From: Deltaproteobacteria bacterium
GTDB taxonomy: Bacteria > Desulfobacterota_D > UBA1144 > Nemesobacterales > JAJCZQ01
NCBI GenBank assembly: GCA_029262335.1
Contig: JAJCZQ010000048.1
Span: 3,844 to 67,843, forward strand
DNA: 64,000 bases
Direction: 5' to 3'
Numbering within the stretch: position 1 is the stretch's first letter; each line of letters starts with the position of its first letter. The notes under the pieces are model-generated. The model was not told the origin of the DNA, searched no databases, and saw only the letters and a list, made by a program, of their open reading frames with translations. A program made the position numbers and the translations under genes. This document shows, piece after piece, positions 12,035 to 50,108 of this stretch.

Positions 12035-12940
12035 TTATTGTACTAAAATAGAGTTTAATATTCGTTTAATATGTGCTGATTTGTTAAGAACATAAAAATG
12101 TATTCCCGGTGCACCGTTTTGAAGCAGGTCTTTAGCCTGTGCTATACATTGCTTTATTCCCAGCTCTTCTGCATAAGCATCATTGTCAGCAGAAATTTTA
12201 AGTTCGTTTTTTAAATTCTCAGGGAAATTAGCTCCGCACATTGTTGAGATTTTCATAATCTGTTTTGATGATAGTATAGGCATTAACCCGGGTACAATTG
12301 GTATATCTATACCGATGTTACGTACTTTTCTAACAAAATCGTAATAATGATTATTATCAAAGAATAGCTGTGTAATGATAATATCTGCACCAGCCTCTAC
12401 TTTTTTCTTTAAATTCTCAAGGTCGGTATTCAAATCGGGTGCTTCAAGGTGTTTTTCAGGATAACCTGCAATTGCAATCCCGAATTTAACATTAAACTTG
12501 GTATTTCTTTTTTCAAAACCCCTTATGTGATGAACAAGTTCATTTGCATATGTGTATCCGTCATCCGGAGGGATAAAGTTTTTTTCTCCGGCAGGAGGGT
12601 CTCCCCTTAGAGCTACTATGTTATCAATTTCATGGGTCATTACTTTTGTCAGGAAAAGATCAATCTCTTTCCTGTTAGCGCCTACACATGTGAGATGGCA
12701 GGCAGTTTCTATTTTGAGCTGATTTTTTATATAGTTAGCAATGTCTATGGTTTTGTCCCTTGTAGTACCCATGGCACCATATGTAACAGTAATATAATCA
12801 GGAGAAAGCGTTGCCAGTTCGGAAAGGACAGTCTTTAGCTTTTCAATACCATTTGCTGTTTTTGGGGGAAATATTTCAAATGATATGACCGGTTTGTCGG
12901 ATTTTATATATATTTCTGAAAACTTCATAATATTATTCAA
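12035..12940 (-). CDS. metF: 5,10-methylenetetrahydrofolate reductase
   Basis: 301 aa. ISFEIFPPKT is the N-terminal MTHFR signature; ...VPGLMPI... is the conserved region. Confidence 0.85.
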   Translation of the reverse strand: MNNIMKFSEIYIKSDKPVISFEIFPPKTANGIEKLKTVLSELATLSPDYITVTYGAMGTTRDKTIDIANYIKNQLKIETACHLTCVGANRKEIDLFLTKVMTHEIDNIVALRGDPPAGEKNFIPPDDGYTYANELVHHIRGFEKRNTKFNVKFGIAIAGYPEKHLEAPDLNTDLENLKKKVEAGADIIITQLFFDNNHYYDFVRKVRNIGIDIPIVPGLMPILSSKQIMKISTMCGANFPENLKNELKISADNDAYAEELGIKQCIAQAKDLLQNGAPGIHFYVLNKSAHIKRILNSILVQ

Positions 12941-13040
12941 CTTTTTTGGTTAACATTCTTTCATAATCACTAATTAAGTCAACTATGTATATGAGGCAGT
13001 AAGTTAATGCTAAATCAAATAAAAAAGGTTTAGGTGGTAA

Positions 13041-14297
13041 TCAAATCATGGTTTTTTGCAGCTCTTCTCTTAATTTATTTACTTCGTAGTATGGTTCACC
13101 TGCTTTTTTTGCATCTTCATAAAGTAACTCTAGTTCAATTAATACAGATTCAAGTTTCTTTCTGCTATCCGGATTTAAAAGGGCTTTTCTAGGAGTGAGT
13201 CCATCAAGTTGTTTAAGCGGTGTGTCAATCCACTTGCTGTAATATTGATCCAGTTCACTGTTAAACTGTTTACGGCTCCTGACCCCCTTTGGCAGTTTAA
13301 CGGATTTGGATTCATTCTTAACTGACAATTCGTTGAAATTTTTAGAACTGTCTTTCTTATGTTTTAGGAAACCCTTAAGTAATGTTTCAAGGTAGAATTT
13401 TGCACTGGCAAGAGTATTTAATGAGTTGCAGTTTACAATCATTTTATTGCCTTCTATTTCAATATGAATATCTGCCTCATTACCATCAAGGTTATTTAAT
13501 CTGAATATTATCAGATCATCGGATGTGTTGTTCAGTAGTGAAAAGTTTTTATTTTTACTGATAATTTCTATTATTTTTGATCTTTTAGTTAAGCTGTATT
13601 CAGATTTAGCTATTACAAAATCCTCTCCCTCCGGAGTCAGATAACGCGGGTGTTTAATAACATCATCAATATGGTTGCCAATAAGGTATCCAAAATCTTT
13701 TAAAAAGTTTAACTGGCTTTCTTGTTCACCATTTTCTATTTTGTACGCATTAAAATTAATCTTGAAATATTCCACAATTAAAGGTTTAAATACCAGGGGA
13801 TAAATTGAAACAAGGCTGAAGAAAAAGTTTTTGTCCTGAGTTCTTACAGGCCTGGCACATATAATATCTGTCAGGTTCAGATTGCTAGACACAATAGCAT
13901 CATGAACAACTGTTTCCTCACCTGAAAATATGTCAGACAAGATACAGAACTCACCTGGTTTTATGTCTTTAATTTCAAAATAACTGCGTGAACTATTTTT
14001 CCATTCTTTTAAGACATGTAATTCTTCAATGCTGATATTATCAACCGAATCTTTAACATACAGATCAATTACTCTTGAGTTATTATCAAAAGTTTTGAAA
14101 TCAAAAATAAACCAGTCTAAAAATCTGGCAAACAGTTTGTCATCAATATCGTCTTCTTCATTGTATACAATAATAGAATCGGGATTATCCTGCCAGATAT
14201 AAAAGGCTTCTGCCGTTTGTGAATGAATATGAGGCTGATCTACATATTCTGTGAGTTTGAGTCTGAGACTGCTTTCTATTTGATCGCTATTATCCAT
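13041..14297 (-). CDS. Hypothetical protein with a C-terminal DUF2384-like (Xre/MbcA/ParS toxin-binding-like) motif
   Basis: 418 aa. The N-terminal ~340 aa have no recognisable family. The C-terminal WIDTPLKQLDGLTPRKALLNPDSRKKLESVLIELE fits the W-x-tP-x3-L-x-G-x-TP-x3-L...V...L..iE pattern of DUF2384. Confidence 0.5.
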   Translation of the reverse strand: MDNSDQIESSLRLKLTEYVDQPHIHSQTAEAFYIWQDNPDSIIVYNEEDDIDDKLFARFLDWFIFDFKTFDNNSRVIDLYVKDSVDNISIEELHVLKEWKNSSRSYFEIKDIKPGEFCILSDIFSGEETVVHDAIVSSNLNLTDIICARPVRTQDKNFFFSLVSIYPLVFKPLIVEYFKINFNAYKIENGEQESQLNFLKDFGYLIGNHIDDVIKHPRYLTPEGEDFVIAKSEYSLTKRSKIIEIISKNKNFSLLNNTSDDLIIFRLNNLDGNEADIHIEIEGNKMIVNCNSLNTLASAKFYLETLLKGFLKHKKDSSKNFNELSVKNESKSVKLPKGVRSRKQFNSELDQYYSKWIDTPLKQLDGLTPRKALLNPDSRKKLESVLIELELLYEDAKKAGEPYYEVNKLREELQKTMI

Positions 14298-23053: not shown

Positions 23054-23406
23054 GGGGGCGTACTGGCTTCGACGGGAAATGAGATAGCTTATGCTGCATG
23101 TCGAGCTTATTAACTCGTAAAACTGATTAACGCACAATAAGTGCCGAACCAATTAACGCACTCGCAGCCTAAATAGAGCTGTGACGACTGATGAGACTCT
23201 GTCTGTAGGTTTTATTAAGTCGCAATAAATACGGACTGGCCATGAAGTTTTTCCAGGTTGGCGGATTGGCGAGATTTTAGACCAGGATAGCAGTGCATGA
23301 CCCGCCTGTAGGTATTTGCACTGTGAAACTTAAAAGCAGGATAAACATGTAGAGGCTGAGTAAGGCTCTTTCGCGGACCTGGGTTCGATTCCCAGCGCCT
23401 CCACCA
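23054..23406 (+). ncRNA. ssrA: Transfer-messenger RNA (tmRNA, SsrA)
   Basis: The 5' GGGGGCGUACUGGCUUCGACGGG... and 3' ...GGACCUGGGUUCGAUUCCCAGCGCCUCCACCA ends form the tRNA-like acceptor/T-arm with CCA. The internal tag reading frame ends ...GCC GAA CCA AUU AAC GCA CUC GCA GCC UAA (AEPINALAA-stop) at 23143-23172. It lies immediately after smpB. Confidence 0.9.
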
Positions 23407-39937: not shown

Positions 39938-40969
39938 ATGAAAGTAGGCATAACAGGAGCCACAGGTTTTATTGGCGGCAGATTATTAAAGCGCATGCTG
40001 AGTGACGGTTATGAGGTAAAGTGCCTAGTAAGAGATAAGGCTAAAGCAAACGTACTTCAGAAATTAGGTGCTGAAACTTACATGGGAAATTTGTCAGATC
40101 CGGACACTCTTAAAGATTTTCCACATGGGTGTGAATATATATTTCATATCGCTGCTTTTGTATCAGACTGGGGTAAAAAATATGAATTTTATAAAAGCAA
40201 TGTCCAGGCAACAAAAGTATTACTAGAGGCTTCAAAAAAACATGAAGTAAAACGTTTTATATTTATGAGTTCATCTACGGTTGTCTGGAACTCAAGTTTC
40301 TGGAAAATACACAACCTGGAAAATATTAATGAAACGTTCCCGTGCCCAAATAAACACAGCGACCATTACAACCACTCCAAGTACCTTGCGGAAAGGGCTG
40401 TAATAGATTTCTCAAAAAACAATAACCTTGAAACAGTAGTTATCAGGCCTTCGAATGTTTGGGGTGCAGGAGATACTGTAATCCTTCCAAGAATTGCAAA
40501 GGCCGCTAAAAAGAAGTTCCTGATACCAATGGGCAATGGCAAAAATGAAACCACTCCCTGCCATGTTGATAACCTCGTAGAGAGTATGATAATTGCTTCC
40601 ACAAATGAAAATGCTCCGGGGAAAGTATATTTTATAAACGATGGGAAAAAGATTAACTATTACAAATTTCTTCAGGACCAGCTATACGCAGCTGGCATAA
40701 GCTGGACACCAACATTTAAGATTCCATATAAATTAGGTTATCTTTTAGCTACTTCTATGGAAGTAATCTTTACTATAATAAGGTCTTCAAAACCACCTGT
40801 GCTCACAAGGTTTGCTGTTGCCGCACTTTCAGGAAACAGGAGTTACAGTATCTCAAGAGCAAAAAAGGATCTTGATTATAATCCGGTAATTACCTATGAA
40901 GAGGGGATGAAAAGACTTCGCGAATGGGTTATTAACATTGGTGGTAAAGAAAAACTGCTTGAAGACTAG
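39938..40969 (+). CDS. NAD-dependent epimerase/dehydratase (3-beta-HSD/SDR-extended family)
   Basis: 343 aa. GITGATGFIGGRLLKRM is a Rossmann motif; YxxxK catalytic dyad (YNHSKYLAE). Confidence 0.75.
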   Translation: MKVGITGATGFIGGRLLKRMLSDGYEVKCLVRDKAKANVLQKLGAETYMGNLSDPDTLKDFPHGCEYIFHIAAFVSDWGKKYEFYKSNVQATKVLLEASKKHEVKRFIFMSSSTVVWNSSFWKIHNLENINETFPCPNKHSDHYNHSKYLAERAVIDFSKNNNLETVVIRPSNVWGAGDTVILPRIAKAAKKKFLIPMGNGKNETTPCHVDNLVESMIIASTNENAPGKVYFINDGKKINYYKFLQDQLYAAGISWTPTFKIPYKLGYLLATSMEVIFTIIRSSKPPVLTRFAVAALSGNRSYSISRAKKDLDYNPVITYEEGMKRLREWVINIGGKEKLLED

Positions 40970-41689
40970 TTGGTTAAATTATTGAATAACAGCTATATAA
41001 AGATAGATACTCTTTCAAAATCCTTTGGCTTTAAAAAAGTATTAGACGGTATTAATTTACAGTTTGAAAAAGGTGATTTTGTAACTTTATTTGGCCCTAA
41101 CGGGGCCGGTAAAACTACGTTAATAAGAATATTATCTACTATTTTAAAAAGTGATGAAGGAAATATTACAATATCTGATTATGACATTAAAAAAAATGTG
41201 TCGGATATAAGAAAGATTATTGGCCTACTATCTCATGAAAATTTTCTTTATCAAAATCTTACAGTTACCGAAAATCTCATATTTTTTGCAAAGCTGTATA
41301 ACGTTAAAAATTCTGAAGAATCCATATCCTATAAACTCAATAAGATTGGTATATATTCAAAAAGAAATGAACTGATAAGAAATTTATCAAGTGGCATGAA
41401 ACAAAGGGTCTCTATTGTGAGATCTTTAGTGCATGATCCCGAAATAATATTTCTTGATGAACCATTTGTAGGATTGGACATTGAAGGGTCCGAATATCTC
41501 CTTGAATTGTTTAGCGAATTTAAAAAAGAAAATAAAACAGCTTTAGTTACAACACATGATCTTAGACTTGGGCTACATGAATGTACAAAAGTTGTTGTAA
41601 TAAATAAAGGACAGATAAGATTTAATGAAATTATTGAAAATGTAGATGTTAATAGTTTCGAATCTACATATAAATCTTTGATTGCCTGA
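40970..41689 (+). CDS. ccmA: Heme exporter ATP-binding protein CcmA
   Basis: TTG start (alternative TTG at 40982). Walker A GPNGAGKTT, signature LSSGMKQRVSIVR, Walker B IIFLDEPFVGLD. Located directly upstream of ccmB/ccmC. Confidence 0.75.
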   Translation: MVKLLNNSYIKIDTLSKSFGFKKVLDGINLQFEKGDFVTLFGPNGAGKTTLIRILSTILKSDEGNITISDYDIKKNVSDIRKIIGLLSHENFLYQNLTVTENLIFFAKLYNVKNSEESISYKLNKIGIYSKRNELIRNLSSGMKQRVSIVRSLVHDPEIIFLDEPFVGLDIEGSEYLLELFSEFKKENKTALVTTHDLRLGLHECTKVVVINKGQIRFNEIIENVDVNSFESTYKSLIA

Positions 41690-41765: not shown

Positions 41766-42437
41766 ATGAACACCCTTGCAGCCGTTCTCTGGAAAGATAT
41801 AATTAATGAACTTCGTACTAAAGAGATAGTCCTTTCTATGGCTGCATTCTCTGTAGTACTTGTTGTAATATTTAACTTCAGTCTTGTTATCAATAGAGAC
41901 AATATCGGACACCTTGTACCGTCGTTTCTCTGGATTTCAATTATTTTTGTCGGAACACTGGGGCTTAGCAGGACTTTTGCCATTGAAAAAGAAAACAGTG
42001 CAATAACGGGTATTTTAATCAGCCCTATCGACAGAAGTATGCTGTATTTTGCAAAAGTCCTTAGTAATTTGCTTTACGTGTTAATTGTGCAGTTTTTACT
42101 GCTGTTTTTATTTCTTTTTATGTTTAATATAAATTTGACCGGCAATATACTGATGCTGATTATTGTAATGGTATTGGGAGCTGTTGGATTTTCAACACTT
42201 GGTACACTTTTTTCAACAATGGCAATAAATACAAAGCTCAGAGAGCTTTTGCTTCCGGTAATACTTTTTCCTGTAATTATTCCGGTAATAATAAATGCGG
42301 TAAAAGCAACATCTTTAATATTCAGCGGCGGCGGGTATACGGAAATTAAACCATTTCTGAACATTTTAATAGCTTTTGATATCATATTTCTTGTAACATC
42401 AGCTCTGGTATATGAGTTTGTTGTAGAGGAGTCTTAA
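41766..42437 (+). CDS. ccmB: Heme exporter permease CcmB
   Basis: 223 aa. Six-TM ABC-2-type permease with CcmB-like conserved region (...SRTFAIEKENSAITGILISPIDRS...), placed between ccmA and ccmC. Confidence 0.8.
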   Translation: MNTLAAVLWKDIINELRTKEIVLSMAAFSVVLVVIFNFSLVINRDNIGHLVPSFLWISIIFVGTLGLSRTFAIEKENSAITGILISPIDRSMLYFAKVLSNLLYVLIVQFLLLFLFLFMFNINLTGNILMLIIVMVLGAVGFSTLGTLFSTMAINTKLRELLLPVILFPVIIPVIINAVKATSLIFSGGGYTEIKPFLNILIAFDIIFLVTSALVYEFVVEES

Positions 42438-42444
42438 AAGTTTT

Positions 42445-43107
42445 ATGAAACTATTATTTTATATAATTACTTTGATATTGATGCTCGTTTCTACATATGC
42501 AGCATTTATTTATGCCCCAACTGAAGTAATTATGGGACATATACAAAGGATATTCTATTTTCATATGGGGACGGTATGGGTAGCAACAATAGCTTTTATT
42601 ATTGTTTTTGTTGCTAGTATTTTATATCTGATCAATGGTAAAAGAAAGTGGGATGTGCTTGCATATACTTCTGCTGAATTAGGCGTTTTTTTTATAACAT
42701 TAACTATTATCACGGGAAGTATCTGGGCAAAACCCGTATGGGGTACATGGTGGACATGGGACCCTCAGCTAACTACTACATTTATACTCTGGATACTGTA
42801 TATTGTTTATCTGTTAATCAGGGCAAATTCTGGTTACGATGAAAAGAAAGCTAAATACTCAGCGGTATTTGCAATAATTGCTTTTATTGATCTTCCTCTT
42901 GTATATATATCTGCAAGGGTAATGAGGGGCATTTCTCCGGTAGTTTTCGGACCTGGTGGTGGTGGAATAGAACCAAAAATGTTAAATGCACTTTTAATAA
43001 CACTTGTTTCCTTTACATTACTATTTATTTTATTATTAGTCGAAAGAATAAAAATTGAGAATCTAAAGTATCAGATTAATAAACTAATATATACGGAGAA
43101 CAATTAG
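42445..43107 (+). CDS. ccmC: Heme exporter protein CcmC (heme handling protein with WWD domain)
   Basis: 220 aa. Trp-rich WWD motif WGTWWTWDPQLTT. The two conserved His residues needed for heme ligation were not individually located. Confidence 0.85.
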   Translation: MKLLFYIITLILMLVSTYAAFIYAPTEVIMGHIQRIFYFHMGTVWVATIAFIIVFVASILYLINGKRKWDVLAYTSAELGVFFITLTIITGSIWAKPVWGTWWTWDPQLTTTFILWILYIVYLLIRANSGYDEKKAKYSAVFAIIAFIDLPLVYISARVMRGISPVVFGPGGGGIEPKMLNALLITLVSFTLLFILLLVERIKIENLKYQINKLIYTENN

Positions 43108-43229
43108 TGGAATATCTATTCTGGGGACATGTATCAGTCTGGCTTTTTATTGCTGTATACGCCCTTTATTTAAAAAATACTTCAGACAATTTGAGCCGGA
43201 AACTAAAAGAACTAAATAACAAGGATTAA
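43107..43229 (+). CDS. ccmD: Putative heme exporter protein CcmD (small single-TM protein)
   Basis: This ORF is absent from the six-frame track. GTG overlaps the ccmC stop (TAGTG). 40 aa: (M)EYLFWGHVSVWLFIAVYALYLKNTSDNLSRKLKELNNKD, i.e. one TM helix plus a charged tail, in the position CcmD occupies between ccmC and ccmE. Confidence 0.5.
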   Translation: MEYLFWGHVSVWLFIAVYALYLKNTSDNLSRKLKELNNKD

Positions 43230-43238
43230 TATACAGAT

Positions 43239-43658
43239 ATGCTTAAGGGAAAATTAAAATTTATTATAGCTATTATTATAATTGCCGGAACCATTAGTTA
43301 CCTGGTATTTTCCGGAGTAAAAGACACGATGGTTTATTACCTGACTATCGACGAACTCCAGGCAAAAGTCCCGGAGGTTTACGGCGAAAGGGTAAGGGTT
43401 TCCGGTATTGTAGTTCCGGGGACTATAATAAAAGATAAAAACGGCAATATTGAATTCCGAATTACAGATGGTGAGAACAACATTGATGTAAAATACAGTG
43501 GTATTATTCCTGATATCTTTGCAGATGATGTTGAAGCAGTGGTTGAGGGAAATTATTCTCAACAGAATGTTTTTAATGCCGATGTACTCCTGGCCAAATG
43601 TCCTACTAAGTATGAGTCTGATGAGAAGTTGTATGAGTCGCATAAGGAAAGCAGTTAA
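43239..43658 (+). CDS. ccmE: Cytochrome c-type biogenesis heme chaperone CcmE, CxxxY variant
   Basis: 139 aa. N-terminal TM anchor, OB-fold core (RVSGIVVPGTI...FRITDGEN), heme-binding motif LLAKCPTKYES. Cys121 is encoded at 43599-43601; canonical CcmE has His-x3-Tyr at this position. Confidence 0.85.
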   Translation: MLKGKLKFIIAIIIIAGTISYLVFSGVKDTMVYYLTIDELQAKVPEVYGERVRVSGIVVPGTIIKDKNGNIEFRITDGENNIDVKYSGIIPDIFADDVEAVVEGNYSQQNVFNADVLLAKCPTKYESDEKLYESHKESS

Positions 43659-45652
43659 TGTATCAAATAGGTAATGTCTGTGTCTATTTTGCATTTTTCC
43701 TGTCACTCTATACCGTAGCAGCTTCTCTGATAGGTGCCAGATACAGGAACAGAGATTTAATAGAGAGCGGAAGAAATTCTGCTTTATCCATATTTATACT
43801 ATTAATTATAGTTTCAGCATCTTTGGTCTATGAGCTTATTAATACAAATTTTAATCTCAGATACGTTGCCTTAAATACAAGTACCGACCTTCCGACAATA
43901 TACAGGTTTACCGCATTATGGGCAGGGCAGGCAGGATCGCTTCTTTTATGGTGTCTAGTCCTTTCACTCTTTTCTTCTATAGTTGTAATGTTTTCAAATA
44001 AAAGGGACATTGATTATCAGCCATGGGTGGTTGTAGTTTTATATACAGTACTGGCATTTTTCCTATACCTGATAACATTTGTTGAAAATCCTTTTGATCT
44101 ATTACCATTTACACCAAACGAGGGCAGGGGCCTTAACCCAATACTTCAAAATGGCTACATGGCAATTCATCCTGTCACTTTGTATCTGGGTTATGTCGGC
44201 CTTACAATACCTTTTGCTTTTGGTATGGCCGCATTAATTAGCGGAAGATTAAATGATTCATGGATAAGACAATCAAGAAGGTGGACAATTCTTGCCTGGA
44301 CATTTCTTAGCGTCGGGCTTTTACTTGGTGCAAGATGGGCATATCTTGAACTTGGCTGGGGCGGTTATTGGGCATGGGACCCTGTTGAAAATGCAGCTTT
44401 TATGCCATGGCTTACAGCAACAGCATTCGTACATTCCGTGATGATCCAGGAAAGGAACGGTATGCTTCGCAAATGGAACATTATTTTACTTATAACCACA
44501 TTCTTCCTTACTTTACTTGGTACTTTTATTACACGTAGCGGCATAATTTCCTCTGTTCATTCATTTGCACAGTCAGATATTGGGCCATTATTCCTTGGAT
44601 TTATTGCCTTTGTATTAATTTTTTCATTTGGGATATTCCTTTACAGAATTAAAGAGCTTGAAAGTGAAGAAAATTTTGATTCAATTATATCGAGGGAAAG
44701 TGCATTTATTTTTAATAACCTGCTATTTCTCGGTGCAGCATTTGCTGTTTTTCTCGGAACTATATTCCCGATTATATCTGAAGCCGTTACTGGTGAGAAG
44801 ATACTTGTCGGCCCCCCATTCTTTAACAAGGTAAATGTTCCAATTGGGCTGGTCCTTATATTCCTTATGGGTGTAGGCCCGCTTATTTCATGGAGAAAAG
44901 CATCACCTGAAAATCTTAAAAAGAATTTTCTACTTCCCATGATAGTGGCAGTATGTGTAGGGATTGTGCTATTTATTTTAAATATAAGAGATATTACAGC
45001 GCTACTCAGCTTCTCATTATGCGGGTTTGTAGTTGCAACAATTGTCACTGAATTTTACAAAGGCGTTTCCGTACGTTCATCCAGGGGTGAGAATATTGTT
45101 GTATCGTTAACTACTATGATATCCCGAAATAAAAGGCGTTACGGCGGTTATATAGTCCATTTAGGGGTTGTCCTTATTGTTATAGGTATAACAGCATCAT
45201 CAACTTTTAATTCTGAAGTAGAAGCTACTTTAAATACAGGTGAATCTTTTAAAATCGGTGAATATGAATTAACTTTTGAAAAACTGGAAACCTATAAAAA
45301 CGATGCAAAAAATGGAACAAAAGCAGTACTGCTTCTCTCAGCCGGCGGCAGAACTATTGACACCGTATATCCTGAGAAAAATATATACAGGTACGAGGGC
45401 AACAGAGAAATAAACCAGGAAACAGAAGTATCTTTGAGGTCAACATATAAAGACGACCTTTATATAATACTCTCGAACGTAAACAGCAATACAAATGCAA
45501 CATTCAGGGCAATGATCAACCCAATGGTTAGCTGGATATGGGCAGGTGGTATAGTTGTTCTTTTTGGAGCATTGATTACCATGATGCCAAAGTTCGCTAA
45601 AAGAAGATCAAGCGTTACCGAAGAAATTGGTTTAAATGCTGAAAAAGCATAA
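43658..45652 (+). CDS. ccmF: Cytochrome c-type biogenesis protein CcmF (heme lyase component)
   Basis: 664 aa multi-TM protein. WWD-type Trp-rich motif WGGYWAWDPVEN. ATG overlaps the ccmE stop (TAATG). Confidence 0.9.
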   Translation: MYQIGNVCVYFAFFLSLYTVAASLIGARYRNRDLIESGRNSALSIFILLIIVSASLVYELINTNFNLRYVALNTSTDLPTIYRFTALWAGQAGSLLLWCLVLSLFSSIVVMFSNKRDIDYQPWVVVVLYTVLAFFLYLITFVENPFDLLPFTPNEGRGLNPILQNGYMAIHPVTLYLGYVGLTIPFAFGMAALISGRLNDSWIRQSRRWTILAWTFLSVGLLLGARWAYLELGWGGYWAWDPVENAAFMPWLTATAFVHSVMIQERNGMLRKWNIILLITTFFLTLLGTFITRSGIISSVHSFAQSDIGPLFLGFIAFVLIFSFGIFLYRIKELESEENFDSIISRESAFIFNNLLFLGAAFAVFLGTIFPIISEAVTGEKILVGPPFFNKVNVPIGLVLIFLMGVGPLISWRKASPENLKKNFLLPMIVAVCVGIVLFILNIRDITALLSFSLCGFVVATIVTEFYKGVSVRSSRGENIVVSLTTMISRNKRRYGGYIVHLGVVLIVIGITASSTFNSEVEATLNTGESFKIGEYELTFEKLETYKNDAKNGTKAVLLLSAGGRTIDTVYPEKNIYRYEGNREINQETEVSLRSTYKDDLYIILSNVNSNTNATFRAMINPMVSWIWAGGIVVLFGALITMMPKFAKRRSSVTEEIGLNAEKA

Positions 45653-45676: not shown

Positions 45677-46042
45677 ATGAATCTGATTGTAATAGTAGTA
45701 CTAATTTCAATATCAATCTCTATCTATATTTTATTCCCGATAATAAAGAAATATTTGATAAACACTGAAGTAGAGATTGATAATTCAGGCACAGACCCTG
45801 AATATAAAAATTTAATAAGAGAAAAAGACCAGCTCCTTAACGAAATAATGGATATAGACCTGGACTATGGATTAGAAAAACTCGGAGATAAAGATTATAA
45901 GGAATTAAGGCAGAAATACCGTTTAAAAGCCGCAGGGGTTATAAAGAAAATAGAAAATTATGAAAAGCTTCATAACACTGAAATTGATATGGTTCTAAGT
46001 AAAAAAATTGATGACGAGATTGAGAATTTAAAAAGAAAATAA
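45677..46042 (+). CDS. Small single-pass membrane protein with a cytoplasmic coiled-coil tail; the tail motif is shared with the next gene
   Basis: 121 aa. N-terminal TM (LIVIVVLISISISIYILFPII) followed by KK, so the tail is predicted cytoplasmic. The tail NLIREKDQLLNEIMDIDLDYGLEKLGDKDYKELRQKYRLKAAGVIKKIE aligns to the C-terminus of the 46061 gene. Confidence 0.5.
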   Translation: MNLIVIVVLISISISIYILFPIIKKYLINTEVEIDNSGTDPEYKNLIREKDQLLNEIMDIDLDYGLEKLGDKDYKELRQKYRLKAAGVIKKIENYEKLHNTEIDMVLSKKIDDEIENLKRK

Positions 46043-46060: not shown

Positions 46061-47476
46061 ATGTTAATACAAAAATATAATTCATATTTTATATGCCTTT
46101 TACTTTTATTCAGTTTGCTTAACGTCTTGCCGGCTTTTTCACAGACTGGCAGTGAACTGTTTATGGAAAACAGGTGTTCAAGGTGCCATACAATAGGAAG
46201 GGGGCGTTTTGTTGGGCCTGACCTTTATAATATTTCAAAAAAATACAATAAAGAACAGGTAAATGCCTGGATACTTAACCCGGATATAATTTACAGCCAG
46301 ACAAATAAAAAACCCTTTAATCCCGGATACCCTCCTATGCCTCAGCTTGGCATAACTGAACACAATGCCGAGCTTATAACAAACTTTCTTTTTAATAACA
46401 AAATACAGCAACAGAAAGAAAATGCCGGGGTAATTGAAGGTGTACTTGTTAATGAATCATCCGGTAAAGGTACAGAGGGTAATGATATTTATTTAAAATC
46501 CTTCATAGGGGACAGGCTGACTGATGAAAAACTTCAGATAACTGACGAAGAAGGAAAATTTAGATTTAAAGACTTAAGCTGGGTAAACAGTTATTCCATC
46601 AAGATTAAACATGAAGGGCTTGAGTATGAAACAGCTAAAATGGTATTCCCTCCCGACCAGGGTTCTATAGATTTAAAACTGCCGTTATTTGAAACGACCG
46701 ATAATGATTCAGAAATATTCCTAAATTTAAATCATCAAATTGTAAGTGTAGCTGAAAAGACCGTATCTATTGCAGAGATTTATGATTATGAAAACCGGGG
46801 TAATAGTATCTATATAGGCAAACCTGGTGATGACAATCTTAGACGTACATTAAAATTTTATGTTCCTGAAAATGCTATTAATCTAAAGTTTGTAGAAGGG
46901 CTTGATAATGATGAAATTCAAAGAGAGAAAACTACTGTTTATGATAGTTCAGGATTTCCGCCCGGAAGAAAAAGAGTCGTATTAACTTATGAAATCCCTC
47001 TTGAATTTGGAAAAAATCTTATAAATAAAGATGTACTAACTAATGTTTCTACGCTTCTTTTACTTGTTGATGACCAAAACGGGATGGTGGATGTCAGTAC
47101 TCTTAGTGAACTGGAACCGGTAACAATTGAAAATAAAAAATATAAAAGATGGTCCGGGAATAATTTAAAATCAGGCAGCAATTACGTTATTACAGTAACG
47201 AACAGGTCACTTTCCATAAAATATATTGATCTTTTCCCCGTTATTATCTTTGCTGTATTGTTTCTGTCCGTCTTTATCATTGGGCTTATTACACGTACTG
47301 AGAATAAAAATAATGTAAAGAACTTGCTGCTCAGGAGAGATGAAATAGTAAAGACAATAATCACTCTTGATGAAGAGTATAAGAAAAACTCTGTTAATGA
47401 ATCCACTTATAAAGAAAAAAGATATAGATTAAAAAATTCAATTATTGAAATTGATAAAAAGATAAACGAAGATTAA
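46061..47476 (+). CDS. Membrane-anchored monoheme cytochrome c fused to a transthyretin/CarboxypepD_reg-like beta-sandwich and a further periplasmic domain, with C-terminal TM plus conserved tail
   Basis: Signal peptide (cleavage AFS/QT). Class I cytochrome c domain with CSRCH (CxxCH) and a candidate Met ligand (PPMPQLG). GVIEGVLVNESSGKGTEGNDIYL...TDEEGKFRFKDLSWVNSYSIKI is a CarboxypepD_reg-like pattern. C-terminal TM (LFPVIIFAVLFLSVFIIGLI). Tail NLLLRRDEIVKTIITLDEEYKKNSVNESTYKEKRYRLKNSIIEIDKKI. Confidence 0.6.
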   Translation: MLIQKYNSYFICLLLLFSLLNVLPAFSQTGSELFMENRCSRCHTIGRGRFVGPDLYNISKKYNKEQVNAWILNPDIIYSQTNKKPFNPGYPPMPQLGITEHNAELITNFLFNNKIQQQKENAGVIEGVLVNESSGKGTEGNDIYLKSFIGDRLTDEKLQITDEEGKFRFKDLSWVNSYSIKIKHEGLEYETAKMVFPPDQGSIDLKLPLFETTDNDSEIFLNLNHQIVSVAEKTVSIAEIYDYENRGNSIYIGKPGDDNLRRTLKFYVPENAINLKFVEGLDNDEIQREKTTVYDSSGFPPGRKRVVLTYEIPLEFGKNLINKDVLTNVSTLLLLVDDQNGMVDVSTLSELEPVTIENKKYKRWSGNNLKSGSNYVITVTNRSLSIKYIDLFPVIIFAVLFLSVFIIGLITRTENKNNVKNLLLRRDEIVKTIITLDEEYKKNSVNESTYKEKRYRLKNSIIEIDKKINED

Positions 47477-48195
47477 AGATCACCAAATTGGTACTGAATA
47501 GCAGTTACAGCTGCAATTGATGCAGTTTCTACTCTTAATATCCTGGGGCCAAGCCCTACAATACTTATACTGTTTTTCGTCGCATATTCTATTTCACTGT
47601 CTGTAAAACCACCTTCTGGGCCGATTATTATATTAATTGTATTATAATTGGAATTTTGATTGTTTAGATATTTATGGAGATTGTTCACTTCATTCTCATA
47701 AAATAACAGAGATAAGTGATCAGTTGATAGGAATTCGTTGATATTTCTAAAATCGATAAAGTCATTTATTTCTGTTGGTTTTGGCCTGCCGCACTGTTTG
47801 CATGATTCAATAGCAATTTTTTTCCATCTTTCTGATTTCCTTGAGTCCTGGACAATGCCTCTTTGCGTTCTTATAGGAGTTATTGATGTAACACCAAGTT
47901 CAGTTGTTTTTTGCACTATAAGGTCCATCTTTGAGCCTTTAGGGATTGATTGAAAGAGGTGTATGTTAATATTTGATTCTTTTATATTCTTATTAGTCTT
48001 CAAAATAATAACTTCGAGTTCATTCCTGTCTACAGAAACAATTTTTCCTGTATGTTCATTATATAGCTCATCAAACAGAGTTAGTTGGTCGTCTATCGTT
48101 AATCTCAGCACTTTTGAGATATGTTTAAAGCTGTCACCAGTAATTATTGCTTTATTATCAGTTATTTGTGAGCTATTTATTGGAAATCTAGGCAT
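47473..48195 (-). CDS. rsmE: 16S rRNA (uracil1498-N3)-methyltransferase RsmE-like
   Basis: 240 aa. N-terminal PUA-like domain plus C-terminal SPOUT domain (...IIIGPEGGFTDSEIE...). Confidence 0.75.
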   Translation of the reverse strand: MPRFPINSSQITDNKAIITGDSFKHISKVLRLTIDDQLTLFDELYNEHTGKIVSVDRNELEVIILKTNKNIKESNINIHLFQSIPKGSKMDLIVQKTTELGVTSITPIRTQRGIVQDSRKSERWKKIAIESCKQCGRPKPTEINDFIDFRNINEFLSTDHLSLLFYENEVNNLHKYLNNQNSNYNTINIIIGPEGGFTDSEIEYATKNSISIVGLGPRILRVETASIAAVTAIQYQFGDL

Positions 48196-48536: not shown

Positions 48537-50108
48537 TTATTTAATATTCAGTTTATCTGCGGATTTAAAATAGCTGATAATTGCAACGATTAACCCCTCA
48601 ACGGTATGTTTTCCTGCCTGTATATCCGCCCTAAATCCATTGTCTTTAATTGTCATTGAAGTTATTGGGCCAATAGAAGATATTATTGTGTTATTTAGGA
48701 GAGTTATATCATTTCCAAGCATCTTTTTAAGGTTGGTAAAAGTTGATGAACTGGTAAAAGTAATAAGATCAATATCACCTGATTTTAATTTGTGAATTAT
48801 ATCCTTTTTAACTGAAATTGAGGTAGGTGGTATTACTGTTTCATAACATTCTGCAACTGTTACTATGGCTTTTAACTCTTTAAGTGTTTCCGGAAGAATG
48901 TCTCGTGCGATTTTGGCTCTTGGTATTAATACGTTTTTGTTTTTTAAATTATGAGCTTTTAATGCTGTCAAAATACCTTCGGCAGTGTACTTTCGCGGGG
49001 TCAAGTCAGAATTAAGCCCATGCCTGGATAATTCTGCAGATGTTTTTTCACCTATGGTAATAATGGTTTTATTATTAAAAATCCTTGAATCATGTTTGTT
49101 TTTCTTAATTCTTTCAAAAAAGAATTTTACCCCGTTTACACTTGTAAATATGACATAATCATATTTTGAGAAGTTCTTTATTGAACTATCTACATTTTTC
49201 CAGGATTTAACCGGGACAGTTTTTATTGTTGGAAGCTCTATTACATTTGCTCCATAAGAATAAAGTGTGTCTCTTAGTCCAGTGGACTGTTCACTTGCCC
49301 TTGTAATTATTATGTTCTTGCCGAATAAAGGCTTTTTCTCAAACCAGTTGATGTTTTTTCTTAAATTAACAATTTCTCCAATAAGTATTACAGCAGGTGT
49401 TGTTATAGTTTTGTCCTTTTTTACCCTGTCTGCAATATCTGATAAATTCCCAACTACTGAATTCTGCGTTGGGAGGGTACCCCAGGATGTGATTATTACA
49501 GGTGTATCTGGGGGCATACTGTTTTTCATTAATTTTCTGGTAATCGATGAAAGGTTCTTTAACGACATTAGAAATACGAGAGTATCAAGTGAAGATATGG
49601 CTTTCCAGTTGATGCTGGATTTTATCTTGTCTGGATTTTCATGACCTGTGATTACTGCAAATGATGAGTTGTATTTGCGGTGAGTAAGTGGAACACCAGA
49701 ATAGCCGGGAACAGCACTGATGGAGCTGACACCCGGTACTATTTCTACTAATATCCCGGCTTTTGTAAGTGCTTCAGCTTCTTCACCCCCACGACCAAAC
49801 AGAAAAGGGTCTCCGCCTTTTAGCCTGATAACAACTCTGTTTCTTTTTGAACTGCTGATCAGAATGTCGTTTATTTCTTTTTGGGTAATTGATTTTTTAT
49901 TAGATTTTTTACCAACAAAAATAAGTTTTGTCTTCTTATTGCAATGATTAAGGAGCTTGGTATTTATTAATGAATCGTATACAACGACATCGGCTGTTTC
50001 CAAGAGGGCTTTGCCCTTTTCAGTTATTAACCCGGGATCACCAGGCCCGGCACCTACAAGATAAACCATTGTGTTCATATTAAATAAAATTGAAACCGAA
50101 CAGTGCAT
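48537..50108 (-). CDS. cobA: Bifunctional uroporphyrinogen-III C-methyltransferase / uroporphyrinogen-III synthase (CobA/HemD fusion)
   Basis: 523 aa. N-terminal SUMT domain (VYLVGAGPGDPGLITEKGKALLETADVVVYDSL...) and a C-terminal ~250-aa HemD-like domain. The true start may be the internal Met of MNTMVYLVGAG (~50078). Confidence 0.8.
   Translation of the reverse strand: MHCSVSILFNMNTMVYLVGAGPGDPGLITEKGKALLETADVVVYDSLINTKLLNHCNKKTKLIFVGKKSNKKSITQKEINDILISSSKRNRVVIRLKGGDPFLFGRGGEEAEALTKAGILVEIVPGVSSISAVPGYSGVPLTHRKYNSSFAVITGHENPDKIKSSINWKAISSLDTLVFLMSLKNLSSITRKLMKNSMPPDTPVIITSWGTLPTQNSVVGNLSDIADRVKKDKTITTPAVILIGEIVNLRKNINWFEKKPLFGKNIIITRASEQSTGLRDTLYSYGANVIELPTIKTVPVKSWKNVDSSIKNFSKYDYVIFTSVNGVKFFFERIKKNKHDSRIFNNKTIITIGEKTSAELSRHGLNSDLTPRKYTAEGILTALKAHNLKNKNVLIPRAKIARDILPETLKELKAIVTVAECYETVIPPTSISVKKDIIHKLKSGDIDLITFTSSSTFTNLKKMLGNDITLLNNTIISSIGPITSMTIKDNGFRADIQAGKHTVEGLIVAIISYFKSADKLNIK

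Follow-up and report, generated by a model that had tools for sequence, protein, structure and literature searches.

In E. coli, heme is covalently attached to His130 of CcmE, with Tyr134 as the axial ligand. What does a ccm operon look like whose CcmE bears a cysteine instead of this histidine, and which of its genes might take part in heme handling? This question is raised by a 64-kb stretch of DNA (64,000 nucleotides; hereafter the window) with a G+C content of 35% from Candidatus Dadabacteria, a class within Thermodesulfobacteriota (NCBI taxonomy). An earlier note on this DNA had described a CcmE with a CxxxY motif in which Cys121 replaces the histidine, and this description is borne out, with coordinates and residue numbers exact. 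The ORF is very probably the CcmE of a System I* ccm operon of a low-GC marine member of Candidatus Dadabacteria, whereby the role of the cysteine toward heme is taken over from published CcmE proteins. Cys-type CcmE was reportedly described by Allen et al. in 2006 as "System I*".

43239..43658, + strand: ccmE, Cys-type heme chaperone, 139 aa, translation ending ...ADVLLAKCPTKYESDEKLYESHKESS
43599..43613, + strand: C121-P-T-K-Y125 motif of CcmE, Cys121 encoded by TGT (43599-43601) and Tyr125 by TAT (43611-43613)

The protein is a member of the CcmE family by Pfam (PF03100; E 2.5e-29, 102 bits at a cut-off of 24.6), and several NCBIfam CcmE models match it as well, each under its equivalog cut-off. 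Its layout comprises a hydrophobic N-terminal membrane anchor, KFIIAIIIIAGTISYLVFS (approximately residues 7-25), an OB-fold domain (approximately 31-116), and the heme-binding tail LLAKCPTKYE with the sole cysteine of the protein. Phmmer against PDB chains places LLAKCPTKY over VLAKHDENY of E. coli CcmE (8ce8_E, 1sr3_A)—C121 over H130 and Y125 over Y134, as the earlier note had anticipated for an alignment to E. coli and Desulfovibrio CcmE—and the motif also over ...LMTKCP of the Cys-type CcmE of D. vulgaris (2kct); the CcmE structure of S. putrefaciens is matched as well. The residues that mark System I*, a cysteine at the position of His130 and a Tyr or Phe four residues on, are hence present as C121 and Y125. 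An antisense ORF of 150 aa (43254..43706, - strand), which spans all of ccmE, has no support and counts here as a mechanical ORF.

No histidine is seen at the heme-binding position. The sole histidine of the protein, His135, sits 14 residues downstream of the cysteine, and for D. vulgaris CcmE (2KCT) a non-covalent binding of ferric heme via the conserved Cys127 has been described (PMC3884852). One might imagine that His135, or Tyr125 alone, binds heme in place of Cys121, or that the protein is a decaying relic. We consider this extremely unlikely, as H135 belongs to a variable tail, with Q, K, or N in relatives, and C121 is invariant; moreover, no fewer than 80 species have a fully intact operon, and the C120A exchange in M. 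acetivorans CcmE abolishes heme binding—with C120A as with C120H, holo-CcmE and holo-cytochromes are both lost (PMC9084895).

The conservation of the motif points in the same direction as Cys121 being the heme-binding residue. Every one of the 120 database homologues most similar to this CcmE (64-99% identity) has LLAKCPTKY, and [LF]AKCPTKY occurs in 87 of the 87 loci examined, i.e., the window and 86 related loci; the L013 locus reads LLAKCPTKYE like the others. A genome scan with the CcmE alignment gave 80 species-level Dadabacteria loci. On a larger scale, a profile search through 1.84 billion proteins, taken as 50%-identity cluster representatives, returned 4,977 CcmE relatives; among the best 150 of these, 148 bear a cysteine at the motif column and none a histidine, with 118 reading CxxxY, 25 CxxxF, and 3 CxxxM. 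This constancy across homologues, loci, and cluster representatives marks the cysteine as a trait that is old and has been selected in a large clade, and, as judged from these sequences, Cys121 is not a product of chance or of a sequencing error. The nearest species-level relative has a CcmE that is 86% identical, and an identical CcmE is present on a JGI metagenome contig.

That such variants occur in archaea and in sulfate reducers, as the earlier note had stated, agrees with the published CcmE proteins of M. acetivorans and Desulfovibrio. In E. coli, the System I* operon of Desulfovibrio produces holocytochrome c with neither CcmH nor CcmG, and heme is bound covalently to its CcmE, according to Goddard et al. 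2010 as related in PMC3601427; the covalency of the Cys–heme link differs between the two studied Desulfovibrio CcmE proteins (PMC3884852). Delta-proteobacteria form the largest group of System I*, in which CPSKY is the commonest motif and F sometimes stands for Y (PMC3601427). How System I* breaks the Cys–heme thioether and attaches heme without CcmH has been raised as a mechanistic question (PMC3601427, PMC9084895). The finding on CcmE adds a member of the Dadabacteria to this published variant, which itself is already known; since the CxxxY variant is well documented, one extra lineage changes little. The known part is the CcmE variant, and the new part is the set of operon features around it. 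No account of a Ccm system in this lineage came up in a literature search on cytochrome c in Dadabacteria.

40970..41689, + strand: ccmA, ABC ATPase (PF00005, E 2e-31; TIGR01189, 128.9 bits, just under the cut-off of 131.6)
41766..42437, + strand: ccmB, ABC membrane subunit (PF03379 CcmB, E 1.2e-24)
42445..43107, + strand: ccmC, WWD heme-handling protein (PF01578, E 1.6e-32), WWD loop at 42739-42762
43107..43229, + strand: ccmD, 40 aa (TIGR04391 CcmD_alt_fam, E 1.7e-5, 24.7 bits at a cut-off of 24)
43658..45652, + strand: ccmF, heme lyase (PF16327, E 5e-69; PF01578, E 8e-40)

The gene order ccmA-B-C-(D)-E-F, which had been proposed for this operon, is supported by the Pfam and NCBIfam matches of its members. 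Two further genes, ORF121 and ORF471, follow ccmF, and the gaps along the operon range from -1 to 76 nt. Hereby, ccmE is placed between ccmD and ccmF, and the start of ccmF overlaps the stop of ccmE by 1 nt. The operon position of ccmA is kept across relatives. CcmF appears canonical: it matches T. thermophilus CcmF (6zmq) with 391 bits and bears the WWD motif (44357-44395) as well as four histidines in the contexts MAIHPV, FVHSVM, SVHSFA, and YIVHLG. In one relative (L006 3159-4823), a DNA methylase and a DUF6996/6997 gene lie between ccmA and ccmB as a mobile insertion. The CcmD of the window consists of bare 40 aa; in higher-GC Dadabacteria, the same segment forms the C-terminus of a lipoprotein-like protein of 204-222 aa (L002 9295-9963, L004 6361-6975, L006 6413-7060; no Pfam match); either domains were fused or the marine lineage was streamlined.

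CcmC shows a first lineage-specific departure. Two histidines of E. coli CcmC, H60 and H184, bind heme (PMC10457321). In the alignment to E. coli CcmC (7f02_C), His40 (42562-42564) of the window protein corresponds to H60, and Ser164 (42934-42936) aligns with H184 of WWNTLHQ. This serine lies within a conserved [VIL][MK]RGISP in all compared Dadabacteria CcmC proteins but one apparently truncated ORF, whereas the CcmC of other Cys-type systems keeps WR[ST][IL]HP and, thus, the second histidine. With a CcmC that does not bear the H184 equivalent, the loading of heme onto CcmE may hence differ from the E. coli model. A nearby histidine, H32, was considered as a compensating residue; it is present in 63 of 78 sequences and, thus, not a universal substitute.

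The earlier note had further connected the CxxxY motif with Ccm systems that have lost CcmH. This connection does not hold as a rule. When metagenomes were scanned with an alignment of CPSK[YF] CcmE proteins, 80 loci came up, and in 34 of them the sequence beyond ccmF is long enough for a judgement. In 21 of these 34 other Cys-type operons, ccmE and ccmF are followed by a Pfam-confirmed ccmH, then an ORF121-like gene, and ccmABC thereafter; 10 of the 21 also bear an ORF471-like gene. In nine of the 34, ccmA comes straight after ccmF in the Desulfovibrio fashion, two have the ORF471-like gene only, and two have none of these genes. The count of 21 in 34 reproduces, with more data, the statement that approximately one third of Cys-type bacteria keep CcmH (Stevens et al. 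2011, PMC3601427). Literature and operon comparison alike show that Cys-type systems are not defined by a missing CcmH. The CcmH proteins of these operons score 53-116 bits on PF03918, and their redox motif comes in two flavours, LKCPVCQ or a cysteine-rich CxCGC...CxCG. In the latter, (L)RCxxC is replaced by L[MIV]C[TQY]CGC...C.CG, with four or five cysteines, e.g., in L089 12360-12854, L097 12419-12877, L099 12384-12866, and L114 12420-12911.

For the window, the claim that no ccmG or ccmH homologue follows ccmF stood, both for the operon and for the 64 kb. Neither ORF121 nor ORF471 has a Pfam or NCBIfam match to CcmH or thioredoxin, and there is no CcmG candidate, i.e., no thioredoxin-like CxxC protein, in the window: among its ORFs of at least 80 aa, CxxC occurs only in ORF471 (CSRCH), RsmE, and one antisense ORF. 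The window also holds no CcdA/DsbD candidate, as its sole multi-TM protein with at least two cysteines is CcmF. A local HMM, derived from CcmH proteins that Pfam had confirmed in other Cys-type operons, was run on the 9,571 ORFs of the window and the 86 related loci and matched none of them, as opposed to 29 matches in other Cys-type loci; in the genomes of 80 Dadabacteria species, the same HMM found no CcmH up to 10 kb away from ccmE.

Maybe the operon only seems to be free of CcmH and CcmG, and CcmH, a thioredoxin of the CcmG/ResA/TlpA type, and CcdA are encoded elsewhere, so that the system works like a CcmH-keeping one. The DNA inspected comprises the 64 kb here and, in relatives, the 10 kb that flank ccmE in either direction, and the retention of CcmH beside ccmF in 21 of 34 other Cys-type operons, like the third given by Stevens et al., would fit such a view. 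We regard it as rather unlikely nevertheless: wherever a Cys-type operon has CcmH, its place is between ccmF and the ORF121-like gene (21/21), a slot of just 24 nt in the window, and CcmH was found in 0 of 87 loci. One protein with WCGSC near the ccm genes (L058) does not recur in other loci. The reading followed here is that of an operon that does without its own CcmH and CcmG.

The two genes that follow ccmF are conserved partners of the operon. Of 70 species loci from Dadabacteria, 65 have ORF121 adjoining ccmF, and 69 have ORF471 no more than 2.6 kb downstream of this gene; both are present in 64 of 70 species.

45677..46042, + strand: ORF121, putative truncated CcmI-like protein, 121 aa, with a TM helix (45680-45742) and a cytoplasmic helical motif (45806-45964)
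46061..47476, + strand: ORF471, membrane-anchored monoheme c-type cytochrome, beginning with a signal peptide
46142-46396, + strand: cytochrome c domain of ORF471 (PF00034, E 2.8e-8, 35.4 bits at a cut-off of 21.3), CSRCH at 46175-46189
46427-47203, + strand: two beta-sandwich domains of ORF471 in the AlphaFold2 model
47222-47296, + strand: TM helix of ORF471, followed by a cytoplasmic helical tail (47297-47473)

ORF121 has one hydrophobic segment and neither a cysteine, a second TM helix, nor a TPR domain or match. The cytoplasmic motif of its family reads L..K-.L...IKDIEFDYGLGKLS..DY.EL...YK.KAA, and some members carry a C-terminal zinc ribbon. No Pfam model matches ORF121. Among NCBIfam models, TIGR03142—the N-terminal domain of CcmI—is the top recurrent family, matched by 39 of 73 orthologues with a best E of 6.4e-5, whereby all family matches stay under the cut-off, the ORF121 of the window gives no direct match itself, and the match covers a short segment with much TM and coiled-coil sequence. 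Orthologues from outside the Dadabacteria, encoded in CcmH-bearing operons, reach up to 28.7 bits at a cut-off of 29.3 and cover positions 2-86 of the 118 of the profile. The place of the ORF121-like gene in the other Cys-type operons, always after ccmH (21/21), corresponds to the canonical H-I order. In E. coli, CcmI is fused to CcmH. ORF121, thus, appears to be truncated and remotely related to the N-terminal module of CcmI, with a homology below the threshold; to this extent, the picture of a downstream region free of CcmG and CcmH homologues has to be amended. CcmI itself bears a second TM helix and a TPR domain (PMC3884852), and as both are missing here, we call ORF121 CcmI-like rather than CcmI. 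In System I*, CcmI raises the cytochrome output, yet it is non-essential (PMC3601427).

A profile search of the ORF121 family against the PDB gave zinc-ribbon and coiled-coil noise only, and no CcmI or CcmH structure. A relation of the ORF121 family to the CcmH family was tried by hhalign and rejected at 3% probability. The five most divergent loci (L081-L083, L085, L086; CcmE 46-54% identical) have an ORF471-like cytochrome gene directly after ccmF (at approximately 12380-13800), and no ORF121-like gene was detected in them. In a further locus (L005 9229-9928), a Gp49/HTH_37 toxin–antitoxin pair sits as a mobile insertion between the ORF121-like and the ORF471-like genes.

The N-terminal domain of ORF471 is a class I c-type cytochrome (PF00034) by its CxxCH, its distal Met region, and its profile score. 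The homologues are 29-96% identical; 78 of 79 orthologues retain CxxCH, and C39, C42, H43, and M93 do not vary among 85 sequences. In the AlphaFold2 model (mean pLDDT 87), the TM helix that follows the two beta-sandwich domains continues into long cytoplasmic helices. Foldseek relates the model to ribophorin I/Ost1 and to the N-domain of M1 aminopeptidase at a TM-score of approximately 0.26, which is generic for beta-sandwiches, and such matches of a predicted fold say nothing on function. The idea that the RCSRCH domain is a diverged CcmH (LRCxxC) was rejected, as Pfam assigns Cytochrom_C and hhalign aligns only TM helix and tail.

With such a standard cytochrome domain, ORF471 might be a mere respiratory electron carrier—a client of the Ccm system whose co-transcription is just a convenience and which is not involved in attaching heme—and ORF121 a small membrane partner. 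The nrf system, where a client is co-located with its dedicated lyase (PMC3601427), offers a precedent. This is possible, if somewhat doubtful, given the homologues of ORF471 outside the Dadabacteria: these occupy the same place in the ccm operon of other Cys-type systems with the beta-sandwich, TM helix, and tail, and start at a CarboxypepD_reg-like beta-sandwich with no cytochrome c domain. Hence, the link of ORF471 to the ccm genes is independent of being a client, and its cytochrome domain is a lineage-specific fusion. Furthermore, members of the ORF121 family match CcmI and, in other operons, go together with ccmH, and the ORF471 tail weakly resembles both the ORF121 motif and the TM helix and tail of CcmH. 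For the former resemblance, an HMM of the ORF121 motif hits, outside its own family, only the tails of eight 'big' orthologues from other loci (E 0.003-0.06 among 9,571 ORFs), and not the ORF471 of the window itself; for the latter, hhalign gives a probability of 36%. Examples of cytochrome-free homologues are L107 7298-8560, L105 7126-8445, L148 3138-4136, and L158 12649-13617.

How does this operon compare with known systems? It shares with the Desulfovibrio System I* the cysteine in place of histidine in a C-P-x-K-Y tail after the OB fold, the presence of CcmD, an operon without CcmH or CcmG, and the phylum (NCBI taxonomy). On the contrary, Dadabacteria carry CPTKY where CPSKY is commonest, and ccmABCDEF plus two genes where Desulfovibrio-like loci run ccmEF and then ccmABC; the latter have no ORF121 or ORF471 genes and keep the H184 equivalent of CcmC that the Dadabacteria are missing. 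The archaeal CcmABCEF of M. acetivorans likewise combines a CxxxY CcmE with no CcmH, and the cysteine is required for heme attachment there (PMC9084895). However, archaeal Ccm systems have no CcmD or CcmI and often a split CcmF (PMC9084895), as opposed to the CcmD, the single canonical CcmF, and the putative CcmI-like remnant of the Dadabacteria. System I of E. coli and R. capsulatus has homologous CcmA-F proteins, with WWD in CcmC and CcmF, the four histidines of CcmF, and Tyr134 of CcmE all kept; it differs by H130 in place of Cys, H184 of CcmC in place of Ser, operon-encoded CcmG and CcmH, and a CcmI that ORF121, with one TM helix, a cytoplasmic motif, and no TPR, resembles only in part. 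Closest in gene content are the CcmH-keeping Cys-type operons such as L105, L111, and L099 (ccmE-F-H-I'-(B)-A-B-C), which belong to the same CcmE clade with CPSK[YF] and bear the same ORF121-like gene, together with the ORF471-like beta-sandwich membrane protein in the share given above; they differ by the Pfam-confirmed CcmH, a B protein without a cytochrome c domain, and a CcmC that keeps its second histidine.

By analogy with D. desulfuricans, D. vulgaris, and M. acetivorans, it is proposed that CcmABCD loads heme onto CcmE via Cys121, either by a thioether link or by Cys ligation. Holo-CcmE would then hand the heme to the canonical CcmF with its WWD loop and four histidines, and CcmF would attach it to the CxxCH of apocytochromes, with no CcmH or CcmG being encoded in the operon. 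ORF121, as a one-TM remnant of the membrane and cytoplasmic module of CcmI, probably docks on CcmF like CcmI-1. ORF471 would represent the beta-sandwich membrane protein of some Cys-type operons that, in Dadabacteria, was extended at its N-terminus by a cytochrome c domain, and might act either as an accessory subunit or as the resident client of the operon.

Going further, the Dadabacteria might represent a distinct sub-type of System I*, in which CcmH and the second axial histidine of CcmC were lost, and the beta-sandwich membrane protein, a so far unrecognised accessory subunit in many Cys-type Ccm operons, was fused to a cytochrome c domain and, together with ORF121, took over a CcmH/CcmI-type role on CcmF. 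ORF471 and ORF121 would hereby dock on CcmF via the TM helix and the CcmH-like cytoplasmic tail of ORF471, and ORF471 might supply electrons or handle the apocytochrome at the site of heme attachment. We regard this proposal as quite unlikely as it stands.

For the three lineage-specific departures of the operon—no CcmH but a CcmI-like remnant, a fusion of cytochrome and beta-sandwich, and a CcmC without H184—we found no description, and the roles given to them here are those that we infer. The comparison yields two conserved, unannotated operon partners, the truncated CcmI-like protein and the beta-sandwich membrane protein that is cytochrome-fused in Dadabacteria, whereas the dadabacterial CcmC offers a natural CcmC without the H184 ligand. 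All three are candidates for heterologous reconstitution, which could show what components of Cys-type systems are dispensable.

The surroundings of the operon are kept in divergent relatives as well. Upstream, a gene of the NAD-dependent epimerase/3beta-HSD family (39938-40969, + strand) abuts ccmA with a 0-nt gap. Beyond ORF471, the opposite strand carries rsmE (47473-48195, - strand) and a fusion of uroporphyrinogen methyltransferase and synthase (TP_methylase and HEM4; 48537-50108, - strand), which belongs to the tetrapyrrole pathway. Farther away, the window encodes a tmRNA at 23054-23406 (+ strand) with the tag peptide AEPINALAA, as identified by ARAGORN.
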